Part shown: positions 43,244-52,608 of the stretch, piece by piece
How the letters are laid out: each line of letters starts with the position of its first letter
Position numbering within the stretch: the stretch's first letter is position 1
IMG/VR virus record: IMGVR_UViG_3300025034_000006
DNA length: 64,000 nt
Strand: one strand, 5' to 3'
Source: an uncultured virus (IMG/VR IMGVR_UViG_3300025034_000006)
Taxonomy: Duplodnaviria; Heunggongvirae; Uroviricota; Caudoviricetes
Program-made: the position numbers and the translations under genes
The notes under the pieces: model-generated
Told to the model about the DNA's origin: nothing
Seen by the model: only the letters and a program-made list of their open reading frames with translations
Database searches by the model: none

Positions 43244-43810
43244 ATGACGAATGCAGTGAAAACCCCCGCCCGTGGGCGCAAGAAGATCGATCAGGCAGCC
43301 CTCGACGCTGCGAACGAAGCCTCCAAGGCACTGAGCGAGAAGCAGCAGCAGGCCGCTTCGAAGCCCCGTGCCAAGGCGGCTCCCAAGACCCGCGCCAAGG
43401 CCGCTACTGGTCTGGGCAAGCAGCGTCAGGCAGATGCCGCTGCTCCGGTGATGGAAAAGCAGGGGGCTTCGGCTTCCGGTAAGTCCGCTCCGGTCGAAGA
43501 GCTTCGCGGCGGCACCAAGCAGGTGCTGATCACCGAAGCTGTGATGGTCGGACGTTCCGGCCGGCCGGCTGGTGTCGAGGAATACCCGTTCGGCGAGCTT
43601 CCGCCCGCCTACAAGGATGAGAACGGACAGATCGTTGGTCTCTCGTTCTTCATCCCGATGACTGACAAGGCCGAGGGCAAGCTTTCTGCTGCCCGCAAGC
43701 GCCACAAGTGCCTGTTCTGGAGCCGCACGGTTTACGAGCAGGTCAATGGCAAGGGCCCCAAGGTCGAAGGTCTTCGCATCTGGCGTGGCACGCCTGACAT
43801 CAAGGCGTAA
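43244..43810 (+). CDS. Basic Ala/Lys-rich protein, possibly DNA-binding
   Basis: GGAGG SD; histone-like N-terminus; ends GLRIWR. Confidence 0.55.
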   Translation: MTNAVKTPARGRKKIDQAALDAANEASKALSEKQQQAASKPRAKAAPKTRAKAATGLGKQRQADAAAPVMEKQGASASGKSAPVEELRGGTKQVLITEAVMVGRSGRPAGVEEYPFGELPPAYKDENGQIVGLSFFIPMTDKAEGKLSAARKRHKCLFWSRTVYEQVNGKGPKVEGLRIWRGTPDIKA

Positions 43811-43820
43811 CCACGCAAAC

Positions 43821-43853
43821 GGAAGGGCCGTCACGAAGGTGGCGGCCCTTTCC
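43821..43853 (+). terminator. Intrinsic terminator
   Basis: AAGGGCCGTCAC/GTGGCGGCCCTT hairpin followed by TCCTT. Confidence 0.7.
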
Positions 43854-43931
43854 TTATAGTGAGAGCCAAATAATTTTCACTGACTGTCATTTTTATGTTG
43901 ACACTGACAGTGAGAATCGGTAATTCGGCCC

Positions 43932-44150
43932 TCCAACGTCTGCTCCATGGTTTTCCGAGGGGCAGGAACAGCCGGAGTCACTCTGACCCCGCAGCGTCGA
44001 ACTTGGGCGCGAGCGAGTCATTGGCCGGTCTGGTGCGGATACGTTTCGTGTCAAGGGCGGGTAGAACGGGGGAAGCCCCGAGATCACCGGCCCCCAGCAC
44101 GATAGGCCAAGCCAGCGCAAGTGGTCCTGTCACGCGGTAAGTCATGGAAT
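43932..44150 (+). ncRNA. Unassigned structured RNA (~215 nt)
   Basis: Own promoter TTGACA(43898)-17-TAATTC; TCCATGG/TCATGGA closing pair; no credible ORF. Confidence 0.45.
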
Positions 44151-44209
44151 ATCTCGACGAGTTGATTTGATTAAGTGTTGACACGAATCGAATCACCTAA
44201 TAGAGAGAC

Positions 44210-44771
44210 GGAATGCCAGCCTGATGGCGATAGTGTGAGGCAACTCACATAAAGGGGGTAAGGCCACTTAACCCCGCCGGTCCCGATCGGTCAATTCAGG
44301 CAAGCGCAGTCAGGTCCGCGAGGACCGCTTCACCGGGATAACCTTGCAAACTTAGCATAGTTGGTAATGCAAACGACTCTTAATCGTGAGATCGGTGGTT
44401 CAAACCCACCAGTCTGCTCCAAACGCAAAGATTGCCACGACTGCATGTGAAAGACGCCTAATGCCATAGAGGCTTGCCTCAATGTGGCCCGACCTGATCT
44501 CGCAAGGTGATGGTTGGTTGGTGGAAGAAGTTTCGTTGGGCCCGCAAGCCCTTAATGGCTGGAGACAGTCAGCGGAATCGAAACTGCCGAATATCATGCA
44601 GTGTCACCGCAAATGCCAGCGGTCCCGTGAGAACCGGGAGAAAAAGGCGGCGTTGGTCTGGAACTGAGCTACCGCAAGGGGCTTGGTGGATAAGTCGGGA
44701 AGGTGACTCGCAAGGTCACTATAATCTGACGAATGACGGATCGTAGCGGGTGTAATCTCAACCTGCTTCCA
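44210..44771 (+). ncRNA. GOLLD-like large structured RNA with embedded tRNA
   Basis: Promoter at 44178; many GNRA-capped hairpins; long-range pairs CTGCATG/CATGCAG and GTTTCG/CGAAAC; internal tRNA; family call from architecture only. Confidence 0.5.
44346..44421 (+). tRNA. tRNA-Lys(CTT), inside the large RNA
   Basis: Cloverleaf, loop CTCTTAA, TTCAAAC, CCA. Confidence 0.85.
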
Positions 44772-44780
44772 TTTTTCGAT

Positions 44781-44953
44781 TTCTATGTTGGCCCAGCAAA
44801 GAAGGTTAGCTACCTTCCCCTCGGTTCCCGCAGGTCAGGTCGATCCCAGCAATTCTCGAATGCAGACGGATCGTCGAAGCATCAGGTCCAGTAATTCGAG
44901 CCGTGGCTTGATCGCATTGGGCGTCGCTGCAAACCCGCTGGGTCATCATAGAA
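44781..44953 (+). ncRNA. Rod-like RNA (~173 nt), 6S-like size and shape
   Basis: Nested pairs TTCTATG/CATAGAA, TGGCCCAGC/GCTGGGTCA, CTCGAAT/ATTCGAG. Confidence 0.45.
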
Positions 44954-44960
44954 AACGATA

Positions 44961-45129
44961 GCCCGGAGTAACCGCCACAACAGATTGGTAGCTTCCATGG
45001 AAAGTTGTCGGGAGTTGGTCAGGGATGTTTAGGTGAAGTCGCCTTCGAAAGCGGCGCGGTGGATCGGAAAGCAGGGTTGATCTCCTGTGGAACGATAGGC
45101 CAGTGGTTCGACTCCACCTCCGGGCTCCA
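44961..45129 (+). ncRNA. tRNA-like RNA with ~130-nt body
   Basis: 8-bp acceptor GCCCGGAG/CTCCGGGC, T arm GTGG-TTCGACT-CCAC, ends TCCA. Confidence 0.6.
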
Positions 45130-45136
45130 TAACGCT

Positions 45137-45276
45137 TCACTCGTAATGAAGCTTCTCAGCGGAATGTCGGCGGTCACGCGACCTAACCGGCGATCCGTGG
45201 GTTTACACTGAACCGGCGGAAGGAAGGGCGTAGTGAACCCGGCCGAGCTTCGAGAGGCCCCATTACGAGTGATCCA
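45137..45276 (+). ncRNA. Structured RNA with 12-bp terminal stem and NCCA end
   Basis: TCACTCGTAATG/CATTACGAGTGA followed by TCCA. Confidence 0.55.
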
Positions 45277-45278
45277 TT

Positions 45279-45402
45279 TGTGATCGGGCCGGCGGCACCA
45301 GATAGGTTTAAGGCGAGTGGACTCCCGTCGAACGGAGACGACAGACCCGGATAAAAACCGTGTATGGGTGTTGCTAGTGCTTTGGCCGCCGGCCTGATCA
45401 CA
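45279..45402 (+). ncRNA. Structured RNA closed by 18-bp stem
   Basis: TGTGATCGGGCCGGCGGC/GCCGCCGGCCTGATCACA. Confidence 0.5.
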
Positions 45403-45408
45403 GATGTT

Positions 45409-45494
45409 TCACTTGCAACAAGGGAGGCGGGCACCGTCGGGAAACCGGGACGGATGATTCGCGAACTTTAGTCCGCTCTCCTTGTTGCGAGTGA
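45409..45494 (+). ncRNA. Long hairpin RNA
   Basis: TCACTTGCAACAAGG...GCGGGC pairs with GTCCGC...CCTTGTTGCGAGTGA. Confidence 0.45.
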
Positions 45495-45682
45495 TGTTCG
45501 AGTTTTTCTCACTTCCCTGTCCGCAGGGGTGACCCGGTAGGTAACCAAGGGTGGTTCGAATATCCTCGCATTTAGTTCCTGTGGGTTCCATGGAGCCCCT
45601 TGAATCCTCAAGCAGGTGACAGAGAGTTAAAGGAGCCGCCCTGCTCCGAAACCAGATAAAATGGGTGAGTGCAATTTTTTAG

Positions 45683-45711
45683 TTGACATTCGAATCGGAT
45701 GTCGTTACACT
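45683..45711 (+). promoter_or_regulatory. Promoter of tRNA operon 1
   Basis: TTGACA-17-TACACT with CGAATCG in spacer. Confidence 0.8.
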
Positions 45712-45763
45712 TCGATCATCAAGACCGGGATGTTCCGGCCAAACAGGATTTCAGAGTTCAACC

Positions 45764-45853
45764 ATGTTCAACGTAGTCGCCATGAATAACCCAGCAGCAC
45801 CGGCCATTATGGTCCCGGTCGCGATGGCGTGCGAACAGATGGTTGGTGGCTAG
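45764..45853 (+). CDS. Leader peptide 1 MFNVVAMNNPAAPAIMVPVAMACEQMVGG
   Basis: Between promoter and terminator; 22 of 28 post-start codons are N/V/A/M/P/I. Confidence 0.8.
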   Translation: MFNVVAMNNPAAPAIMVPVAMACEQMVGG

Positions 45854-45882
45854 GCCACTTCACTCTCCAAGCAGTTATCTCG

Positions 45883-45919
45883 ATCGGGGGCCATGGCAAC
45901 ATGGCCCCCGATTTCGTTT
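45883..45919 (+). terminator. Attenuator terminator 1
   Basis: Perfect 13-bp stem ATCGGGGGCCATG-GCAA-CATGGCCCCCGAT followed by TTCGTTT. Confidence 0.85.
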
Positions 45920-45995
45920 CAGGGTCTAGCTCAGTTGGAAGAGCGTCCGGTTTGGGACCGGAAGGCCGTAGGTTCGAGCCCTACGATCCTGACCA
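45920..45995 (+). tRNA. tRNA-Pro(TGG)
   Basis: Canonical cloverleaf, CCA. Confidence 0.95.
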
Positions 45996-46007
45996 TTTCA
46001 AGAGTAT

Positions 46008-46086
46008 CAGGCGGTAGGGGAGTCTGGCCGTCCCTACCTCCCTCGGACGGAGGGGATCGCAGGTTCGAATCCTGCCCGCCTGACCA
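46008..46086 (+). tRNA. tRNA-Pro(CGG)
   Basis: Cloverleaf, loop CTCGGAC, CCA. Confidence 0.9.
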
Positions 46087-46092
46087 AGTTAT

Positions 46093-46163
46093 AGCAGAGC
46101 CTCAGTGGGGGCGGGGCCTCATAAGCCTTTGACCCGGTGGCGCACATCCACCCTTTGCTACCA
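46093..46163 (+). tRNA. tRNA-Met(CAT), atypical (short D arm, T loop CGCACAT)
   Basis: Acceptor AGCAGAG/CTTTGCT, loop CTCATAA, CCA. Confidence 0.7.
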
Positions 46164-46301
46164 GATAGGTGACCCAGCCACCTCCTCGTCGATCGCCGAG
46201 ATCGTCAGGTGCCCCGCACGATCAGCGGAGCTAGTAAAACCACTGGGACGTTTCGAACCGTCTCGTTGAGACGCGTCTAAGCCGGAGTAATTAACCGGCG
46301 T

Positions 46302-46412
46302 ATGCGGGGCGGTTGTAGAACGAGGAGGACGCCGGTTCGAATCCGGCCACCGGGGCAAGGCTCCGGTGTAGCTCAGGTGGTTAGAGCGCCTTGTTGATTT
46401 CGTCCCCGGCAT
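46302..46412 (+). ncRNA. YrlA-like Y RNA / circularly permuted tRNA-like element
   Basis: Order is T arm, looped acceptor hairpin (CACCGG/CCGGTG), D arm; closed by AACGAGG/CCTTGTT. Confidence 0.7.
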
Positions 46413-46442
46413 CCGTCAAATCGGATGGGACAAAGAGTTTGT

Positions 46443-46518
46443 TGGTGATTAGCTCATTCAGGAGAGCGCTGGTGTCACATACCAGAGGCGGCAGGGGCAG
46501 AGCCTGCATCACCAACCA
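46443..46518 (+). tRNA. tRNA-Val(CAC)
   Basis: Cloverleaf, atypical T loop GGCAGAG, CCA. Confidence 0.85.
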
Positions 46519-46519
46519 T

Positions 46520-46597
46520 CCACGGATAGCTCAGTTGGTAGAGCGGCCGACCGATAATCGGCGTCTTGCGCAGGTTCGAGCCCTGCTCTGTGGACCA
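46520..46597 (+). tRNA. tRNA-Ile(GAT)
   Basis: Cloverleaf, loop CCGATAA, CCA. Confidence 0.9.
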
Positions 46598-46744
46598 GTT
46601 ACCAAACCCTTGACGGGGTGAGGACGCAGGGGTTAGTCTCCCTGTAAGAGCGAGACTAATAGACCGAACATTCGGCCGGCGGATGAGTTGACGACTCGCA
46701 CTCCCGGTTGATCAGTAGGTTGAGGTCTCGCTACCAGTTTATGT

Positions 46745-46828
46745 TCGGTGGTGACAGAGTGGTAATGTGCCCGGCTGTTAACCGGTGTCCCCGAAAGGGC
46801 GGAGGTTCGACCCCTCCCCGCCGAGCCA
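46745..46828 (+). tRNA. tRNA-Asn(GTT) with long variable arm
   Basis: U1-A72, G73, loop CTGTTAA, CCA. Confidence 0.85.
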
Positions 46829-46843
46829 ATTTAGGAGAAGTGA

Positions 46844-47152
46844 GTGGAACGCTACAACATCAGCTACGATCGACCCGGACGAAAACTCCGGGAGACCGAT
46901 CCGGGCCCGTCTGATACCACATGGAAAGGTGTCCGGGAACATTGGTCGAGATCGCATGATGGGCAGTTTCTCTCGGACTATCAGGAAGGTGTCGCACTGG
47001 CCCAAGCGGATTTGACCGCTGATAACCGGGACAATCGCGACGCGCTCTTGGCGGTAGAGGTAGCAGATCGCGGACTTGGCTGGGAAGCCCAGCGCGATGG
47101 TTACCTCGACACGATCGGCGAAGGAAAATACGTCGCTCGTTTGGATTTTTAA
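46844..47152 (+). CDS. Hypothetical protein within tRNA operon
   Basis: AGGAG SD plus GTG. Confidence 0.55.
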   Translation: MERYNISYDRPGRKLRETDPGPSDTTWKGVREHWSRSHDGQFLSDYQEGVALAQADLTADNRDNRDALLAVEVADRGLGWEAQRDGYLDTIGEGKYVARLDF

Positions 47153-47541
47153 TGACAGAGATGAACGTCTTATGTCTGACTTGCCAAACGGAATTGACTG
47201 GTAAACAGACCAAGTTTTGCTCACGAGCATGTCAGAACAAAAACGGTAATGTGAGGAATCAACTCTACGAAAAACAACAAGCCCGAGGCTTGAAAAGAAA
47301 AATGGAGTTGATAAACCTTCGAGGAGGTGGTTGTGAAGAATGTGGTTACAGAGATAATCTAGCTGCTTTGTGTTTTCATCATACAGATGAGACTTCAAAA
47401 GGTTTCGAGCTTACTTTAAGAGAGCTTTCGAATCACAAAGAAGAAACTATAATGAAAGAGTTCGCCAAATGTGTTGTGTTATGTCATAATTGCCATATCG
47501 AACACCACAATCCGAGCCTGAATGGCTGGTATAAGAAATAA
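47152..47541 (+). CDS. HNH endonuclease, probable homing endonuclease in the tRNA cluster
   Basis: CEECGY...LCFHH...LCHNCHIEHH; AT-rich. Confidence 0.85.
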   Translation: MTEMNVLCLTCQTELTGKQTKFCSRACQNKNGNVRNQLYEKQQARGLKRKMELINLRGGGCEECGYRDNLAALCFHHTDETSKGFELTLRELSNHKEETIMKEFAKCVVLCHNCHIEHHNPSLNGWYKK

Positions 47542-47543
47542 TT

Positions 47544-47617
47544 GATCCTGTAGCTTAGTGGTCTAAAGCTCTCTCCTCATAAGAGATGAAACGTAGGTTC
47601 AAATCCTACCGGGATTA
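47544..47617 (+). tRNA. tRNA-Met/Ile2(CAT), no encoded CCA
   Basis: Cloverleaf, loop CTCATAA. Confidence 0.85.
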
Positions 47618-47618
47618 C

Positions 47619-47693
47619 GCTTCGTTAGCTCACCAGTAGAGCGCTGCCGTGACAAGGCAGAGGTAGGAGGGGCAGCACCTTCACGAAGCACCA
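47619..47693 (+). tRNA. tRNA-Val(GAC)
   Basis: Cloverleaf, T loop GGCAGCA, CCA. Confidence 0.85.
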
Positions 47694-47699
47694 CAGTTT

Positions 47700-47777
47700 G
47701 GGGTCGCATGTTCCAAGGGAAGGCGACGGACCCTTGCAAGGTCTGTGAGGTGGGTTCGATTCCCACCGGCTCCACCA
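47700..47777 (+). tRNA. tRNA-Ala(TGC)
   Basis: G3-U70 pair, loop CTTGCAA, CCA. Confidence 0.9.
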
Positions 47778-47839
47778 TACTTGACACGGCCAAAATTTGG
47801 CCTATTGTCGGCCGAAGCAATCATGCTAAAGGAACCGAC

Positions 47840-48016
47840 ATGAACACTTTGTATAGCTGGAAAATCCGCCGGGCTGGTGCTGGTATGACCATCACTCATT
47901 CGTGCGGTAAGATCGTCAACGTCGCTGACATCGAAGCCAAGGGTGACCGGATCATTGCCACCACGGCGACTGGGGCTGAGTTCGAATTGGCGACGCCGCC
48001 CCTCCTCGCAGGGTAA
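47840..48016 (+). CDS. Small hypothetical protein
   Basis: TTGACA at 47781, AAGGA SD, ATG. Confidence 0.55.
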   Translation: MNTLYSWKIRRAGAGMTITHSCGKIVNVADIEAKGDRIIATTATGAEFELATPPLLAG

Positions 48017-48045
48017 ATTAAAAATACGCCAGTGTGATTTTTGTG

Positions 48046-48074
48046 TTGACATAACGAATCGAATCACATATAGT
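48046..48074 (+). promoter_or_regulatory. Promoter of tRNA operon 2
   Basis: TTGACA-17-TATAGT with tandem CGAATC. Confidence 0.85.
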
Positions 48075-48127
48075 TCGGCTTCAACAACGGACACAGTGTC
48101 CACCAAACAGGATTTTGAGTAACTGCT

Positions 48128-48190
48128 ATGACCTACGGATTTACCAAACGAGATCGCCGGAGAGGCGAAGAACGAGGTTTCACCTCGTAA
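48128..48190 (+). CDS. Leader peptide 2 MTYGFTKRDRRRGEERGFTS
   Basis: 14 of 19 post-start codons are K/R/D/G/E/F; 5' UTR shares CCAAACAGGATTT..GAGT with leader 1. Confidence 0.8.
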   Translation: MTYGFTKRDRRRGEERGFTS

Positions 48191-48226
48191 CCCGGTAGTG
48201 CGTAGAGCTATCGGTGTCGTTTTGAC

Positions 48227-48302
48227 GGACCTTTAGCTCAGTAGGTAGAGCAGGCGGCTCTTAACCGCAAGGTGGTAGGTTCAAGCCCTACAAGGTCCAC
48301 CA
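48227..48302 (+). tRNA. tRNA-Lys(CTT)
   Basis: Canonical cloverleaf, CCA; lies upstream of terminator 2. Confidence 0.95.
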
Positions 48303-48320
48303 AAACGACATCGATTTTTG

Positions 48321-48358
48321 AACGCCCTACCGGTCGCCCGGTGGGGCGTTTTTCGTTT
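48321..48358 (+). terminator. Attenuator terminator 2
   Basis: 13-bp stem AACGCCCTACCGG-TCGC-CCGGTGGGGCGTT followed by TTTCGTTT. Confidence 0.85.
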
Positions 48359-48377
48359 CCCGGCTGGTTCTTGGCAT

Positions 48378-48453
48378 GGACCGGTAGCTCAGTAGGCAGA
48401 GCGCGGGACTTTTAATCTTGAGGTCGTGGGTTCGAACCCCACTCGGTCTACCA
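48378..48453 (+). tRNA. tRNA-Lys(TTT)
   Basis: Canonical cloverleaf, CCA. Confidence 0.95.
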
Positions 48454-48479
48454 AGAATATCAATAGTTTACGACTAGAT

Positions 48480-48554
48480 GCGGGTGTAGCTCAGTGGTAG
48501 AGCGCCTGCTTGCCAAGTAGAAGGTCGCGGGTTCGATCCCCGCTACCCGCTCCA
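48480..48554 (+). tRNA. tRNA-Gly(GCC)
   Basis: Canonical cloverleaf, CCA. Confidence 0.95.
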
Positions 48555-48582
48555 GTCGAAGTTGTTAGTGATGAGTGATGAT

Positions 48583-48658
48583 GCAGCCGTAGCTCAGCGG
48601 TAGAGCGGGAGGCTTCCACCCTCCGTCAGCGCGGGTTCGATCCCCGCCGGCCGCTCCA
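48583..48658 (+). tRNA. tRNA-Gly(TCC)
   Basis: Cloverleaf, loop CTTCCAC, CCA. Confidence 0.9.
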
Positions 48659-48670
48659 TCACTTATTATT

Positions 48671-48745
48671 GGCCGTGAAGCCCAACGGTTGGGCAGCGGA
48701 TTGTCTATCCGAAGGTTGCGGGTTCGAATCCCGTCACGGTCGCCA
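48671..48745 (+). tRNA. tRNA-Asp(GTC)
   Basis: Cloverleaf, G73, CCA. Confidence 0.9.
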
Positions 48746-48748
48746 GTT

Positions 48749-48858
48749 TGCAGTATCGTCTAATCCCCGACAACGGGGACAGAGTGTCATGACCTCTGGG
48801 ACTAGGATGGCCGGGCGAAGAACCGGAAGATGTCGGTTCGATCCCGGCTGCTGCGCCA
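48749..48858 (+). ncRNA. tRNA-like RNA with two hairpins inserted in the D loop and an 8-nt anticodon-position loop
   Basis: GCAGTA/TGCTGC acceptor, GTCGG-TTCGATC-CCGGC T arm, CCA. Confidence 0.6.
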
Positions 48859-48916
48859 GTTAACCGGTCAGATATGACCTACAAGCCCGTCTTGTGTGCC
48901 ATATATGACCATATGA

Positions 48917-48990
48917 GGCCCTATCCTCTATGGGTAAGAGTCCACCCTCTCACGGTGAGAAACCGGGTTCGAGCCCCGGTAGGGCCTCCA
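48917..48990 (+). tRNA. tRNA-Glu(CTC)
   Basis: Loop CTCTCAC, CCA; near-duplicate of 49095-49168. Confidence 0.9.
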
Positions 48991-49009
48991 TGAATTAGTT
49001 TACGAGTTC

Positions 49010-49086
49010 GGTCTGGAAGCTCAACTGGAAGAGCAACCGCCTACGAAGCGGAAGGTTGATGGGTTCGACTCCCTCGCAGACCACCA
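49010..49086 (+). tRNA. tRNA-Arg(ACG)
   Basis: Loop CTACGAA, CCA. Confidence 0.9.
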
Positions 49087-49094
49087 ATTTATAT

Positions 49095-49168
49095 GGCCCT
49101 ATCCTCTATGGGTAAGAGTCCGCCCTTTCACGGCGAGAAACCGGGTTCGAGCCCCGGTAGGGCTACCA
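49095..49168 (+). tRNA. tRNA-Glu(TTC)
   Basis: Loop CTTTCAC, CCA. Confidence 0.9.
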
Positions 49169-49179
49169 GATAAGTCAGT

Positions 49180-49255
49180 GCCGCTTTAGCTCAACTGGAG
49201 AGAGCGCGGGCGTCCGAAGCCCAAGACCGGGGTTCGAGTCCCTGAGGCGGCACCA
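49180..49255 (+). tRNA. tRNA-Arg(CCG)
   Basis: Loop GTCCGAA, CCA. Confidence 0.9.
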
Positions 49256-49261
49256 GAGATT

Positions 49262-49336
49262 GCAGGAATAGCTCAGTGGTAGAGCGGTAGGTTGAAAACC
49301 TACGCGTCGGTGGTTCGAACCCATCTTCTTGCACCA
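49262..49336 (+). tRNA. tRNA-Phe(GAA)
   Basis: Canonical cloverleaf, CCA. Confidence 0.95.
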
Positions 49337-49343
49337 GATCACC

Positions 49344-49413
49344 GCCCCCGCCGAGGCGGGCCATGAGCCTTCTAAGCTCTAAGGCGTCGGTTCGACTCCG
49401 GCCGGGGGCTCCA
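49344..49413 (+). tRNA. tRNA-Arg(TCT), short D arm
   Basis: Loop CTTCTAA, T arm, CCA; 70 nt. Confidence 0.75.
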
Positions 49414-49453
49414 CGCCCAGATCAAAAAAAAACACCGTCAGCAAAAATAAGTG

Positions 49454-49482
49454 TTGACTCCTTTAACTTCCTTCCATATACT
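49454..49482 (+). promoter_or_regulatory. Promoter of tRNA operon 3
   Basis: TTGACT-17-TATACT; ATG begins 8 nt downstream, so the mRNA is probably leaderless. Confidence 0.85.
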
Positions 49483-49489
49483 TCGCAGC

Positions 49490-49573
49490 ATGTTCACACA
49501 GACCGCCTTGCAAAGCCTTACGGGCTCCTTACTATGCTGGCATAGCCAGTATAGTTCCCTGTCACCCTTCTAA
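49490..49573 (+). CDS. Leader peptide 3 MFTQTALQSLTGSLLCWHSQYSSLSPF
   Basis: 21 of 26 post-start codons are T/Q/L/S/C/W/H/Y. Confidence 0.8.
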   Translation: MFTQTALQSLTGSLLCWHSQYSSLSPF

Positions 49574-49608
49574 GGGAGCAGCCCTGACGCGCTGCTCTCT
49601 TTCCAAGA

Positions 49609-49705
49609 GGAGCGGTGGCAGAGTCTGGGTTATTGCGGCGGTCTCGAAAACCGTTGGACCATCGAGAGATGTGTTCCGTGGGTTCAAATCCCACTCGCTC
49701 CTCCA
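49609..49705 (+). tRNA. tRNA-Ser(CGA)
   Basis: Long variable arm, loop CTCGAAA, CCA; lies upstream of terminator 3. Confidence 0.9.
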
Positions 49706-49715
49706 GCATTTTCAG

Positions 49716-49754
49716 AGCGTCAGAGCCCACCGGGTTCTGGCGCTATTTTCGTTT
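49716..49754 (+). terminator. Attenuator terminator 3
   Basis: 13-bp stem AGCGTCAGAGCCC-ACC-GGGTTCTGGCGCT followed by ATTTTCGTTT. Confidence 0.8.
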
Positions 49755-49767
49755 CATCACAAGTTTC

Positions 49768-49860
49768 GGGTGATCTTCCCCCTGCCGGCCTGTAACCCCG
49801 GTGCCGTTTCAGAACGTGGGGGACGGATGGCGAGAGGTTCGAGTCCTCGGTCACCCACCA
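49768..49860 (+). tRNA. tRNA-Tyr(GTA), non-canonical (8/4 stems, no D arm)
   Basis: GGGTGATC/GGTCACCC acceptor, loop CTGTAAC, GAGG-TTCGAGT-CCTC, ACCA. Confidence 0.65.
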
Positions 49861-49904
49861 TTTTAGGAGAATACCTGTGAATACAGGAGCTTAATAAGAG
49901 TTAC

Positions 49905-49988
49905 GTGAGCGTGGCTTCATAGGGAATGGTATACCTTGCCGGCTCAGACCCGGTAGCTTTGGGAGTTCGAGTCTCCCCGCTCACACCA
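49905..49988 (+). tRNA. tRNA-Leu(CAG), atypical
   Basis: Loop CTCAGAC; short variable loop; extra bases before D arm. Confidence 0.8.
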
Positions 49989-49996
49989 ACTTAAAT

Positions 49997-50079
49997 CCGC
50001 GATTGGCGAAATTGGTAAACGCAGCGTCTTGAGAGGGCGTGGCCTAGGCTTCCCGGTTCAAGTCCGGGATCGCGGACCA
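49997..50079 (+). tRNA. tRNA-Leu(GAG)
   Basis: Loop TTGAGAG, variable arm, CCA. Confidence 0.9.
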
Positions 50080-50093
50080 ACACAACAAGCTAC

Positions 50094-50178
50094 GGGTGCG
50101 TGGCGACAGGGGAATTGGTAGACTCACCGGACTTAAAATTCGGCCGCTTTGTGGGTTCGAGTCCCACCGCACCCACCA
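50094..50178 (+). tRNA. tRNA-Leu(TAA), atypical
   Basis: Loop CTTAAAA; short variable loop; extra bases before D arm. Confidence 0.8.
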
Positions 50179-50193
50179 GATATGAAGTTCAAT

Positions 50194-50268
50194 GCCGGTT
50201 TAGCTCAGTGGTAGCAGCAGCGCCTTTGTAACGCGAAGACGAGGGTTCGATTCCCTCATCCGGCTCCA
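50194..50268 (+). tRNA. tRNA-Thr(TGT)
   Basis: Loop TTTGTAA, CCA. Confidence 0.85.
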
Positions 50269-50290
50269 GATAATGTTCCACGGTTTAGGT

Positions 50291-50364
50291 GTGGCCGAGG
50301 CAGAGATGGATGATGCGCCGGCTTGTGATGCCGGAGATGGCGGGTTCGAATCCCGCCGGTCACC
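50291..50364 (+). tRNA. tRNA-His(GTG)
   Basis: Loop TTGTGAT, C73, no encoded CCA. Confidence 0.85.
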
Positions 50365-50382
50365 CCTAAGCCGTGGAACAAT

Positions 50383-50457
50383 TGCCCGATCGACTAATTG
50401 GCAAGTCGCTCGACTCTGAATCCTGAAATGTAGGTTCGACCCCTGCTCGGGCATCCA
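50383..50457 (+). tRNA. tRNA-Gln(CTG)
   Basis: U1-A72, loop CTCTGAA, CCA. Confidence 0.85.
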
Positions 50458-50472
50458 ATTATGGAGTTAGTT

Positions 50473-50721
50473 ATGGAAGTTCTTGACGAACAAACTGACC
50501 AACCTGATGCCCCTTCGGCTAATGGTAAGTCAGCGCCCTTTGAAGGCGAAGACGTTGGTTCGATCCCAACAGGGGCATCCAAAAATTTAGCTCCGATCCA
50601 TCGCTGCACTGTGCGGCAGATCGGGGAGTTCACGTTTGTTCTGGTTGAACCTGATGGTTCCCTGTTCAACGTGGTCGAAGAGATCGATCGTCAGTTTATG
50701 GCTGGAGGTTGTAACAAGTAA
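50473..50721 (+). CDS. Hypothetical protein whose frame spans tRNA-Gln(TTG)
   Basis: GGAG SD plus ATG; frame is open through the tRNA. Confidence 0.45.
   Translation: MEVLDEQTDQPDAPSANGKSAPFEGEDVGSIPTGASKNLAPIHRCTVRQIGEFTFVLVEPDGSLFNVVEEIDRQFMAGGCNK
50508..50581 (+). tRNA. tRNA-Gln(TTG)
   Basis: U1-A72, loop CTTTGAA, CCA. Confidence 0.9.
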
Positions 50722-50722
50722 C

Positions 50723-50798
50723 GCCGTTTGAGCAAGCTGGGACTGCACTCCCTTGGTAGGGGAGAGAAGAGTCGGTTCGATTCCGACAAACGGCTCCA
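50723..50798 (+). tRNA. tRNA-Thr(GGT)
   Basis: Loop TTGGTAG, CCA. Confidence 0.85.
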
Positions 50799-50804
50799 AT
50801 TAGA

Positions 50805-50892
50805 GGAGGGTGCCGAGGTCGGCTCCTCAACTGGCTTGCTAAGCCGGGGTGACCCTTCGGGGTCAGGGGTTCGATGCCTCCACCTTCCTCCA
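50805..50892 (+). tRNA. tRNA-Ser(GCT), 8/4 type
   Basis: 8-bp acceptor, 4-bp T stem, long variable arm, CCA. Confidence 0.8.
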
Positions 50893-50900
50893 CAACATAT

Positions 50901-50988
50901 GGAAAGCGCGTGGGTCGGCTCCCTAATCAGCTTGGAACGCTGTCGTGACCCTTCGGGGTCAGGGGTTCGATGCCCCCGCTTTCCTCCA
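50901..50988 (+). tRNA. tRNA-Ser(GGA), 8/4 type
   Basis: 8-bp acceptor, 4-bp T stem, same variable arm as the previous tRNA. Confidence 0.8.
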
Positions 50989-51026
50989 CATACGTTGAAG
51001 CATATATCCACCCGATAATATATGCT

Positions 51027-51069
51027 TTGACATATCATGTGAAATCGCTTAGTTCACATGATATGTCAA
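51027..51069. repeat. Perfect 17-bp inverted repeat starting with TTGACA on both strands
   Basis: TTGACATATCATGTGAA-9nt-TTCACATGATATGTCAA. Confidence 0.9.
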
Positions 51070-51073
51070 TCAA

Positions 51074-51159
51074 GCCGCCTTGGCCGAGTCTGGTAAGGCA
51101 CCCGGTTGCAACCCGGAGGTTCCGAAAGGACGCAGGTTCAAATCCTGTGGGCGGCTCCA
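51074..51159 (+). tRNA. tRNA-Cys(GCA) with long variable arm
   Basis: Loop TTGCAAC, U73, CCA. Confidence 0.85.
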
Positions 51160-51173
51160 GATTATGAGGTGAA

Positions 51174-51509
51174 ATGAACGTAGACGATTTTTATGCTGAG
51201 TGCGCTGTGATCCTTGGAGTTCCCCACGAGGGCGAAGAGTTCACCCACTACAAGCGGACCCGCTGGAACAACCGGCGGCCCGGCCGAGGACGTTTTCCCG
51301 GTGCTGGTTTGATCCGCGTGTTCGGCGATGTCGTCCACATCAATATCCGTTTCCCAGTGGTCGCCCGGCAGACGATCACCGGGCTCCCCGAAGCGTTAGA
51401 TTATCTTCGCGGTCGGGTTGGCACTATGGGAGTGTCGTCTAATGGTAAGACAGCGGATTCCAAACCCGCTGACGTGGGTTCGATTCCTACCTCTCCCGCC
51501 ACACCGTAA
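51174..51509 (+). CDS. Hypothetical protein whose 3' end spans tRNA-Trp
   Basis: GAGGTG SD plus ATG; RTRWNNRRPG.GRFPG.G segment. Confidence 0.65.
   Translation: MNVDDFYAECAVILGVPHEGEEFTHYKRTRWNNRRPGRGRFPGAGLIRVFGDVVHINIRFPVVARQTITGLPEALDYLRGRVGTMGVSSNGKTADSKPADVGSIPTSPATP
51428..51501 (+). tRNA. tRNA-Trp(CCA)
   Basis: Loop TTCCAAA, G73, CCA. Confidence 0.9.
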
Positions 51510-51577
51510 TTTTCGATTGACAATCGTTGGCTTTTATCTTAACGATGTGTCTCTCAAAAATGTAGGTGGAATAACTA

Positions 51578-52156
51578 ATGGAATTTTCTGCTCGCCAGCA
51601 AACATTCGGCATCAGCCAGCTACAGCGCTTGCTTGGTAAGAGTTCGCAGGACGTTGAGCGTTTCGCCTCTTACAGTGGATGGCCCGGCTTGACCGGACAG
51701 ATGGTGACCGTGGATGTCTCCGGCGCTCTCAACATGATGGTTCACTCCACAGCGGCCGACTTCGGTGTCGAACGCAACGTGGTTGGTTCTTGGCTTCCGG
51801 GTCTGCGGACCGGGGCTCTCATGGTTCTGGGGCGGAATGTGGACAACTGGACCGTCAACGCCACTCCTGAGGAACAGAACCGATTCTTCGCCAGCCTCTT
51901 CGGCGAGCAATCGAAGGTCAATGATTTCGTTGCCACCACCCTTGGCTGTCACTCGGGCTCGGCCAAGCGCCAGATGCGCTTCCACTCTGCGACCGACGTA
52001 GAGCTTCTGTCGGAAGCAGAGTTTCTGGCCGGATACAGTTCACGATCGCCGCGCTTCGTGATCGATTCGCGAGCCCTCGCTGACCGGCTGTCGGCCATTT
52101 CGCAACCGCTCTTTGTTGCCAGCGTCAAGGTGACTTCGCCCTCGCCCTATCTCTGA
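51578..52156 (+). CDS. Hypothetical protein
   Basis: Own TTGACA promoter; 192 aa. Confidence 0.6.
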   Translation: MEFSARQQTFGISQLQRLLGKSSQDVERFASYSGWPGLTGQMVTVDVSGALNMMVHSTAADFGVERNVVGSWLPGLRTGALMVLGRNVDNWTVNATPEEQNRFFASLFGEQSKVNDFVATTLGCHSGSAKRQMRFHSATDVELLSEAEFLAGYSSRSPRFVIDSRALADRLSAISQPLFVASVKVTSPSPYL

Positions 52157-52216
52157 TTTTCGACGCGCTCTCAATTTTCAGTTGACAGTGATGTGCGAAT
52201 CGCTTATTCTTCTCCT

Positions 52217-52608
52217 CGTCAAGTGCTTCGGCATGAAGACTACGGTCGTAGAAGGCCATCTAAGTCAAGCGGAGACCCGAGGGCAGAACTCGGCACCTCC
52301 ACCAAAGACCCCTGCGGCCGCCTGAAACGCGGTCAGGGTGACGATCCGCCTAGGCTCTGGACGACGGTCCTTTGTAAGGCAGCGGGGTTCTTTGATGGGG
52401 GTGAATTTAGGATCGATCCGTAAGGCCGATGTGGAGAAGCGCCCCGTTTAGATACCGCCCGTATGCGGATCAAATTCATCAACTGTCAACGACAATGATG
52501 TGGTCGTCGCCAGCGAAGAGATTCGTCTCGCCGCGTAAGCGACAAAATCCCTAGGGCCTCACACCTCTAGGTGGCGCGTGGTCCCGAGCGTAGCAACAGT
52601 TTCGGGAC
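52217..52608 (+). ncRNA. ssrA: Two-piece circularly permuted tmRNA
   Basis: Acceptor piece ends CACCTCC-ACCA at 52304; spacer hairpin; coding piece starts GGGGGTG at 52397 (G3-U70); tag frame 52485-52538 VNDNDVVVASEEIRLAA*. Confidence 0.9.

Follow-up and report, generated by a model that had tools for sequence, protein, structure and literature searches.

The stretch of DNA analyzed here, which we call the window, comprises 64,000 nucleotides of the IMG/VR record IMGVR_UViG_3300025034_000006, assigned to an uncultured virus of the Caudoviricetes. It is phage DNA, and the phage appears to infect sphingomonad bacteria. The closest named genome is that of Erythrobacter phage XM05 (80% identity over 48029–48736), and a second IMG/VR record, G001, is 100% identical to the window over 45600–50000 and is therefore not an independent sequence. 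Between 44346 and 51501 ARAGORN identifies 27 tRNA genes on the plus strand, the strand on which the whole element described below lies; a run with intron search found no additional tRNAs. The subject of this report is an element within this array that begins with a promoter at 48046–48074, ends with a terminator at 48320–48358 in front of a group of eleven tRNA genes, and had been predicted from the sequence alone to be a transcription attenuator with a tRNA built into it.

A consensus scan of positions 43500–52500 revealed five plus-strand promoter-like sites (at 45683, 47781, 48046, 49454 and 52182) and two long terminators (48320–48351 and 49716–49744). The best promoter-like site in this region, with 11 of 12 consensus matches, is the sigma-70-type promoter at 48046–48074, which has its −35 box at 48046–48051, a 17-base spacer, its −10 box at 48069–48074 and an expected transcription start at about 48081. 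Downstream of it lie a short leader open reading frame (ORF) of 20 codons plus a stop codon (48128–48190), a gene for tRNA-Lys(CTT) (48227–48302; called by ARAGORN and given 64.8 bits by the Rfam tRNA model), and an intrinsic terminator (48320–48358) made up of a 14-pair stem (48320–48333/48338–48351) and a T-run (48349–48358). The eleven tRNA genes that follow (48378–49413; ARAGORN) have no promoter of their own, the scan having found no plus-strand promoter-like site between 48074 and 49454. Ten of them are Lys(TTT), Gly(GCC), Gly(TCC), Asp(GTC), Glu(CTC), Arg(ACG), Glu(TTC), Arg(CCG), Phe(GAA) and Arg(TCT), and the eleventh member of the block is an unusual tRNA-like stretch at about 48750–48860. 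The layout recognized in the original prediction, that is, a promoter, a short ORF, an antiterminator, a terminator and then promoter-less tRNA genes, is borne out by this inventory. The terminator has a folding energy of about −26 kcal/mol and, because this stem and its T-run stand between the sole promoter and the eleven tRNA genes, conditional read-through is required.

Pattern scans, a protein-anchored scan and BLAST yielded eleven distinct versions of the switch, namely those of the window, L015, XM05 (L001), L008, L009, L038, L025, L017 (the primase of which is 77% identical), L028, Lacusarx (L041) and vB_EliS-L02 (L040). Three of the eleven come from cultured phages (Lacusarx, vB_EliS-L02 and XM05), and Sphingobium phage Lacusarx and Erythrobacter phage vB_EliS-L02 carry the more distant copies. 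The version found in L025 is identical to those in L018, L020 and L032, and loci whose switch is identical to that of the window (L005–L007, L010, L012, L019, L021, L024, L031, L034 and L039) were collapsed into it. Five of the 12 metagenome loci (L029, L030, L035, L036 and L037) were chance matches in unrelated DNA, with neither leader nor tRNA, and were dropped. A −35/−10 pair is present by eye at the equivalent place in all eleven variants, all of which also contain the T-run and a terminator stem of between −14.7 and −28.4 kcal/mol. The leader ORF likewise is open, and starts with ATG, in every variant; it has 20 codons in nine of them, 21 in L028 and 19 in Lacusarx. Since each of these two length changes amounts to exactly one codon, the reading frame is kept.

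The composition of the leader mirrors the tRNA genes of its unit. Of its 19 post-start codons, 14 specify Lys, Arg, Asp, Glu, Gly or Phe, the amino acids of the tRNAs of the unit, compared with a background share of 36.5% for these six amino acids among the 13,311 codons of the 40 long ORFs of the window (P = 0.0011 by the binomial test, with which simulation agrees; P = 0.0006 by simulation when all six amino acids are also required to be present). No other of the 354 short ORFs of the whole window (ATG-started, 15 to 45 codons) attains this share. The enrichment is specific to the frame of the ORF, as the other two frames of the leader contain only seven and eight in-set codons out of 19. 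Across the nine variants included in this count, the set accounts for 133 of 172 codons in the ORF frame; the remaining two frames score 58 and 70, and the third frame is interrupted by five stop codons in four of these variants. The two cultured relatives outside the nine-variant count have 15 in-set codons each, out of 18 and 19, and L017 has 17 out of 19. All six amino acids occur in the leaders of all eleven variants (three of them read by eye), and codons 2 to 6, which vary between lineages, are still drawn largely from the six-amino-acid set. The match between the leader and the tRNAs of its unit thus exceeds chance at the level of amino acids, and it is the set of six amino acids that is matched and conserved.

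The strongest control for this match is provided by two neighbouring units of the array, which we number 1 and 3, with the unit at 48046–49413 as unit 2. The leaders of units 1 and 3 (45764–45853 and 49490–49573) each match their own tRNA set (simulated P = 8 × 10−5 and about 3 × 10−6, respectively), and cross-matches amount to 0 to 4 codons. In the leader of unit 1, 17 of 28 codons specify Pro, Ile, Asn, Met or Ala (22 of 28 counting Val), and in that of unit 3, 20 of 26 codons specify Ser, Leu, Thr, His, Gln, Cys or Trp. All 15 of the leaders that we examined in six phages contain every amino acid of their own set.

The original prediction went further and proposed a match at the level of isoacceptors, with a separate leader codon for each of the three Arg and two Gly tRNAs. 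The leader codons do correspond to downstream anticodons in the ARAGORN list (Lys TTT; Arg ACG, CCG and TCT; Gly TCC and GCC; Asp GTC; Glu TTC; and Phe GAA). As a designed feature, however, this finer match does not hold up. When the peptide was held fixed and synonymous codons were drawn 200,000 times from the codon usage of the phage itself, all three Arg and both Gly classes were represented in 17% of draws (P = 0.17), which is compatible with chance. Nor is full isoacceptor coverage conserved, with AGA present in two of the 11 leaders, CGG in 10 and GGA or GGG in 10. The XM05 leader contains neither CGG nor AGA, yet XM05 carries Arg(CCG); AGA is missing from nine of the 11 leaders, though Arg(TCT) is found downstream in L008, L009, L017 and vB_EliS-L02; and the Lacusarx leader has CGG in a unit for which the record annotates only Arg(ACG), judged by annotation only. 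The codons AAG and GAG are indeed absent from the leader, as had been stated, and are absent from all eleven variants (P = 0.047 in the window). In addition, seven of the 19 leader codons end in A, compared with 12.2% in genes (P = 0.005), and AAA, CGA, AGA, GGA and TTT are minor codons in the phage genes, where they make up 6 to 20% of their synonyms. The excess of A-ending codons and the absence of AAG and GAG offer hints only of a signal at the level of codons.

Beginning one base past the stop codon of the leader is a strand, 48192–48203, that pairs at 11 of 12 positions with 48322–48333, the 5′ arm of the terminator, just as originally described. We refer to the strand at 48192–48203 as the antiterminator 5′ strand (segment 2), and to 48322–48333 as the shared strand, since pairing with one partner excludes pairing with the other. 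In our alignment (A4), 87.9% of cells are paired in the antiterminator helix, compared with 29–54% when the partner is slid along the sequence; nine of 500 shuffles do as well. Two of the pairs have changed on both sides. The antiterminator strand begins 0 or 1 base past the stop codon in all eleven variants, and one central mismatch is kept in all eleven. For the competing terminator helix, 97.4% of cells are paired and two pairs have changed on both sides. A single position of the shared strand differs in L028 and Lacusarx, and its partners in segment 2 and in the terminator 3′ arm both differ to match; this triple change is the outcome expected of selection on both alternative pairings.

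Nested between the antiterminator strand and the terminator, as the original prediction had it, is tRNA-Lys(CTT). Its cloverleaf is kept in the relatives, with pairs changed on both sides, and it is enclosed by the predicted clamp, a stem of 15 pairs, including one G–T, between a 5′ arm at 48210–48224 and a 3′ arm at 48301–48315 whose first two bases are also the last two of the encoded CCA end. MAFFT alignments misplace the clamp of L015, L025 and L028, and clamp counts were instead taken from the RNAalifold alignment and from single-sequence folds; on this basis, five of the 14 aligned clamp pairs have changed on both sides. Together the antiterminator and the clamp form a helix of 12 + 15 = 27 pairs around the tRNA (48192–48224 with 48301–48333), interrupted by a 6-by-6 internal loop. 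When the 3′ arm of the terminator is left off, the minimum-energy fold consists of the pairing of segment 2 with the shared strand (segment 3), the internal loop, the clamp and the cloverleaf in all nine of the variants folded, and the 12 + 15 pair architecture is found in these nine folds and in two further cultured relatives. RNAalifold applied to that stretch gives 44 pairs, 17 of which, including the five in the clamp, have changed on both sides.

The two states are close in energy. In folds of the RNA that runs from the stop codon through the terminator stem, the antiterminated state is favoured by 1.5 to 6.2 kcal/mol in nine of the eleven variants and disfavoured by 2.5 kcal/mol in L017, while in vB_EliS-L02 the two states are equal. 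A ribosome whose A site holds the stop codon was taken to reach over 16 bases; with pairing barred for these bases, counted from the stop codon onward, the terminator forms in all eleven variants. The full-length transcript folds far better than shuffled sequences (z = −6.94; 0 of 200 shuffles). The parts of the element thus occur in a set order, its two principal helices are mutually exclusive, both covary, and the folds that contain them are of near-equal stability; the element is real, conserved and structurally coherent.

A third pairing had also been proposed, between segment 2 and 48133–48145 within the ORF. Taken over 48192–48205, this pairing is possible on paper as two pieces of five pairs each, but the predicted fold of the leader does not include it, and the stretch 48133–48145 differs in eight of the eleven variants. 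The conserved competitor of the antiterminator is instead a local hairpin of eight pairs at 48192–48214, in which segment 2 pairs with the beginning of the clamp 5′ arm; a T-rich run comes next. This hairpin is part of the terminator-state fold of the window and of L038 and, judged by eye, persists in the relatives, L025 having a compensatory change in one pair. We consider it a candidate pause or holding hairpin. Inside the ORF, the centroid fold contains two small hairpins (48154–48168 and 48172–48188), the second of which ends on the first base of the stop codon; 97.8% and 95.2% of their cells are paired and none of their pairs has changed on both sides, so that covariation neither supports nor refutes them. 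At the 5′ end of the transcript, folds contain a hairpin of five pairs (48089–48101; 85% of cells paired, two pairs changed on both sides).

One further long-range pairing joins leader codons 10–12 (48156–48163) to a segment just past the terminator (48357–48364). Here 97.2% of cells are paired, as against 22–63% for slid partners, and shuffling gave an equally good result in 24 of 500 cases; one of the pairs is A–T in four variants, G–C in four and G–T in one. Duplex prediction picks this site in all nine of the variants compared, at −28 to −35 kcal/mol as against −22 to −25 kcal/mol for shuffles. The helix belongs to the full-length minimum-energy fold, in which the T-run can extend it by way of the purine run of the leader, and it may close a processing domain in read-through transcripts.

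Taken together, these findings suggest that the element is a ribosome-mediated, leader-peptide transcription attenuator that gates phage tRNA genes and carries a tRNA gene nested in its antiterminator, a reading to which we give a probability of roughly two-thirds. We infer that the leader is translated, that its translation affects termination, in which direction control runs, and that the nested tRNA serves as a timer. Host RNA polymerase would start at 48046–48074 and transcribe the leader, tRNA-Lys(CTT) and the terminator in turn. If decoding is fast, the ribosome at the stop codon would cover 48192–48203 while polymerase crosses the tRNA, the terminator would form, and tRNA-Lys(CTT) would be the sole product. 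A slowly decoded codon for Lys, Arg, Asp, Glu, Gly or Phe would leave 48192–48203 free; the last codon to be sensed would be codon 18, as a ribosome stalled there would just clear position 48192. The clamp 3′ arm would then zip up with the 5′ arm, displacing the local hairpin at 48192–48214, and the freed strand 48192–48203, held beside 48322–48333, would pair with it. Removal of the terminator 5′ arm in this way would permit read-through into the eleven tRNA genes. The net logic would be negative feedback on tRNA supply, and read-through is also the predicted outcome when there is no translation. The nested tRNA would be made regardless of the state of the switch and would probably also act as a spacer and scaffold of about 110 bases, setting the time in which a ribosome has to finish 20 codons; such a role may explain why a 118-base separation of the antiterminator strands is tolerated.

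Several observations weigh against this interpretation. In L017 the terminator state is the more stable one, and four of the 12 antiterminator pairs are lost. Five structural hallmarks of an attenuator are present (the ORF, its composition, the terminator, the antiterminator and the placement of the strands), whereas another, a pause or anti-antiterminator hairpin that involves the ORF, is lacking: no conserved 1:2 hairpin of the kind known from trp was found. The hairpin at 48192–48214, which lies outside the ORF, may take over that role. Furthermore, part of the terminator can survive in the antiterminated state. Part of the terminator 5′ arm recurs in the loop and at the beginning of the 3′ arm, such that a residual G+C hairpin of five pairs (48335–48348) is possible beside the T-run when 48322–48333 is sequestered. 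It has an energy of −9.9 kcal/mol in the window and −5.5 to −10.9 kcal/mol in ten of the eleven variants, and is absent in vB_EliS-L02. With a G+C hairpin of four to six pairs beside the T-run in ten of the eleven variants, the "on" state may still terminate in part. The ribosome binding site of the leader is also weak, consisting by eye of a 4-base purine motif 15 bases upstream or a 3-base motif 8 bases upstream of the start codon; in L028 about 10 bases separate the −10 box from the start of the leader. At the DNA level there is almost no variation in codons 7 to 18, and the evidence from that part of the ORF is therefore not independent across variants. For the proposed timing to work, a ribosome would have to wait on the stop codon until polymerase has moved on by about 130 to 160 bases, which is plausible. 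Finally, the purine-rich middle of the ORF pairs with the pyrimidine-rich stretch after the terminator, and thus part of the amino-acid match could be structural. As to transcripts, 16 public sequencing runs were listed, none with half or more of the query words, and the four that were examined consist of contigs, probably of DNA, that are dominated by tRNA look-alikes of other organisms and are silent on transcript ends.

The last of the structural points leads to the alternative that survives best, which we nevertheless consider unlikely. The module might act as RNA only, with a fixed partial terminator that sets the ratio of tRNA-Lys(CTT) to the remaining tRNAs, two helices (the one around the tRNA and that of 48156–48163 with 48357–48364) that are processing stalks for RNase III or another maturation enzyme, similar to those of rRNAs, and an untranslated ORF that owes its composition to purine-rich structural RNA. 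Purine-rich RNA tends to encode Lys, Arg, Glu and Gly in any frame. The other two leader frames have in-set shares of 34% and 41%, compared with a background of 36.5%. The frame test and the two neighbouring leaders argue that RNA structure is not the whole explanation of the composition of the leader. A 27-pair, covarying helix around a tRNA with one internal loop is what a processing stalk would look like, and the pairing between the leader and the post-terminator segment, with its one covarying pair, the two kept ORF hairpins and the weak ribosome binding site would all fit an untranslated RNA, in which the residual hairpin could give constant partial termination. This alternative leaves unexplained the frame-specific composition (133 of 172 codons against 58 and 70), the presence of all six amino acids in all eleven variants, the length changes of exactly one codon, and the persistence of the same set in codons 2 to 6, which vary and take no part in the pairing. 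Nor does it account for two neighbouring leaders that are not purine-rich and match their own tRNA sets and not each other's. Moreover, a stalk that shares a strand with the terminator is in effect an antiterminator.

Slightly less probable again is the possibility that the leader is translated and controls read-through by some other logic, for example with efficient translation favouring read-through by melting the hairpin at 48192–48214, or by way of Rho access, transcript stability or the processing of tRNA-Lys(CTT). A conserved hairpin beside the stop codon, followed by a T-rich run that resembles a pause site, is in keeping with such a scheme, as is the different geometry of unit 3, the plain fold of which contains no antiterminator. 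Even so, the strand that a terminating ribosome would cover is the antiterminator strand itself, and masking it yields the terminator in all eleven variants; Rho would be unneeded, as an intrinsic terminator is present; and a switch that made more tRNA only under fast decoding would amount to positive feedback of no evident use. Very improbable is a third possibility, in which the ORF product, a small peptide of basic and acidic residues, has its own function and only happens to be encoded before tRNA genes: while residues 7 to 18 are conserved in the 11 variants, the DNA of those residues is itself nearly invariant and so gives no sign of selection on protein, the variable part swaps residues freely within one amino-acid set, and three unrelated leader peptides each mirror the tRNA set downstream.

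Units 1 and 3 resemble unit 2 to different degrees. Unit 1 (45683–45912) is of the same kind but without a nested tRNA. Its promoter is located at 45683–45711, its leader (45764–45853) has 29 codons, and its terminator, of 13 pairs at about 45882–45912, stands directly before a tRNA-Pro gene at 45920; a motif in its 5′ untranslated region resembles that of the unit at 48046–49413. Unit 3 (49454–49744) does contain a nested tRNA. From its promoter (49454–49482) to its ORF (49490–49573) there are only 7 bases past the −10 box, which suggests that the ORF is probably leaderless, and the spacing of the start is identical in XM05, L015 and L017. A hairpin begins on the stop codon of this ORF and is followed by tRNA-Ser(CGA) at 49609–49705 and by the terminator at 49716–49744. 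The plain minimum-energy fold of unit 3 contains no antiterminator; by eye, a 7-base stretch in a loop is complementary to the 5′ arm of the terminator. As this terminator-complementary strand lies in the loop of the stop-codon hairpin, the geometry differs between units.

The tRNA sets of the three units, spread over 45683–51501, seem to cover all 20 amino acids without overlap, only if a Val gene in unit 1 and a Tyr gene in unit 3 that were read by eye are counted. As a tentative extension of the attenuator reading, and one that we regard as possible rather than probable, the three leaders could form a complete decoding sensor that samples the tRNA sets for all 20 amino acids, with each leader switching on its own set and with the tRNA in two of the units serving as a scaffold and as a delay line, whose transcription and folding would time the race between ribosome and polymerase.

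We note several further features of the tRNA block and its surroundings. The tRNA-like stretch at about 48750–48860 lies between tRNA-Asp and tRNA-Glu and has a tRNA-like acceptor and T arm with about 30 extra bases in the middle; in XM05 and L015 its place is taken by a short spacer. A tRNA-like gene in L017 (2497–2595), missed by both ARAGORN and Rfam, also has an expanded middle, together with a reduced D arm and, by eye, an ACG (Arg) anticodon loop. In the window, four tRNA-like genes missed by ARAGORN are found at 47619–47690, 49760–49870, 49905–49990 and 50103–50171. Several of these have odd arms, two pass the Rfam tRNA threshold (43.3 and 29.3 bits), and their anticodon loops read by eye as Val(GAC), Tyr(GTA), Leu(CAG) and Leu(TAA). 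Another tRNA-Lys(CTT) gene, distinct from the nested one, is located at 44346–44421, upstream of all three units, and the region of about 1.2 kb that follows it (44420–45680) contains tRNA-like 3′ ends and no called gene. In the lineage of the window, a 58-codon ORF (47841–48016) is found between unit 1 and the promoter of unit 2, with its own promoter-like site (47781–47808); it is absent from XM05, where tRNA-Ala adjoins the unit 2 promoter directly. Cys/His-rich ORFs within the tRNA arrays (47152–47541 in the window and about 1716–2090 in L017) resemble HNH homing endonucleases by eye and occupy different places in different relatives. Directly after the array is a tmRNA gene of the alpha type, that is, the permuted form of the alpha-proteobacteria (52178–52500), with a promoter-like site at 52182.

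The element is reminiscent of the leader-peptide attenuators of enterobacterial amino-acid operons, among which are trp, his, leu and pheA and the multivalent thr and ilvGMEDA leaders. As in these systems, a promoter-proximal short ORF is rich in the codons that would be sensed, and the 5′ arm of the terminator pairs alternatively with an upstream strand within reach of a ribosome that has arrived at the stop codon; as in the ilv and thr leaders, several amino acids would be sensed together. It differs from them in that tRNA genes and not biosynthetic enzymes are gated, in that six amino acids are represented, mostly by single codons and not by runs, in that about 118 bases, including a whole tRNA gene and the clamp, separate the antiterminator strands, and in that three units split the tRNA sets between them. 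Because there is no conserved 1:2 hairpin inside the ORF, the predicted default in the untranslated state is read-through, unlike in trp. Attenuation of a gene of the translation apparatus is familiar from Escherichia coli pheST, where the sensed codons of the pheM leader specify the product's own amino acid, but pheST encodes an aminoacyl-tRNA synthetase, its control concerns one amino acid, and there is no RNA gene inside the switch. T-box riboswitches likewise tie a choice between terminator and antiterminator to the state of the tRNA pool; they bind uncharged tRNA in trans and without translation, whereas the tRNA here is encoded in cis within the switch. We considered whether the element is itself a T-box, with a specifier loop and a conserved T-box sequence that would bind the tRNA acceptor end, and rejected this identity, as no Rfam cis-regulatory family, T-box included, matches anywhere in 48040–48400, either at the gathering score or at E values of up to 10. 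Finally, the long helix that encloses a stable RNA, of 27 pairs in this case, recalls rRNA processing stalks and spacer tRNAs, from which it differs in that the 3′ strand of the stalk doubles as the 5′ arm of the terminator and in that both pairings covary.

Genes for tRNAs are usually described as being controlled at the promoter, through growth rate and stringent control, and by processing. Full-text literature searches did not turn up any report of tRNA genes under leader-peptide attenuation, and words beginning with "attenuat" or "leader" are absent from the accessible portions of the vB_EliS-L02 (PMC9127768) and Lacusarx (PMC5648845) genome papers. The presence of the element in three cultured phages with known, non-pathogenic hosts (Lacusarx with Sphingobium sp. 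IP1, vB_EliS-L02 with Erythrobacter litoralis DSM 8509 and XM05 with Erythrobacter sp. JL475) makes the idea directly testable. If the attenuator reading is correct, these phages would gauge decoding speed directly and make tRNAs on demand, which would bear on a long-standing question, that of the purpose of tRNA arrays in large phages and the timing of their use, and the nested tRNA would represent a new attenuator part, a stable RNA that serves as spacer and scaffold. If the three leaders do in addition form a complete decoding sensor, the array would give the phage a set-by-set answer to shortfalls of host tRNAs, possibly including those caused by the cleavage of tRNAs by host defence nucleases.

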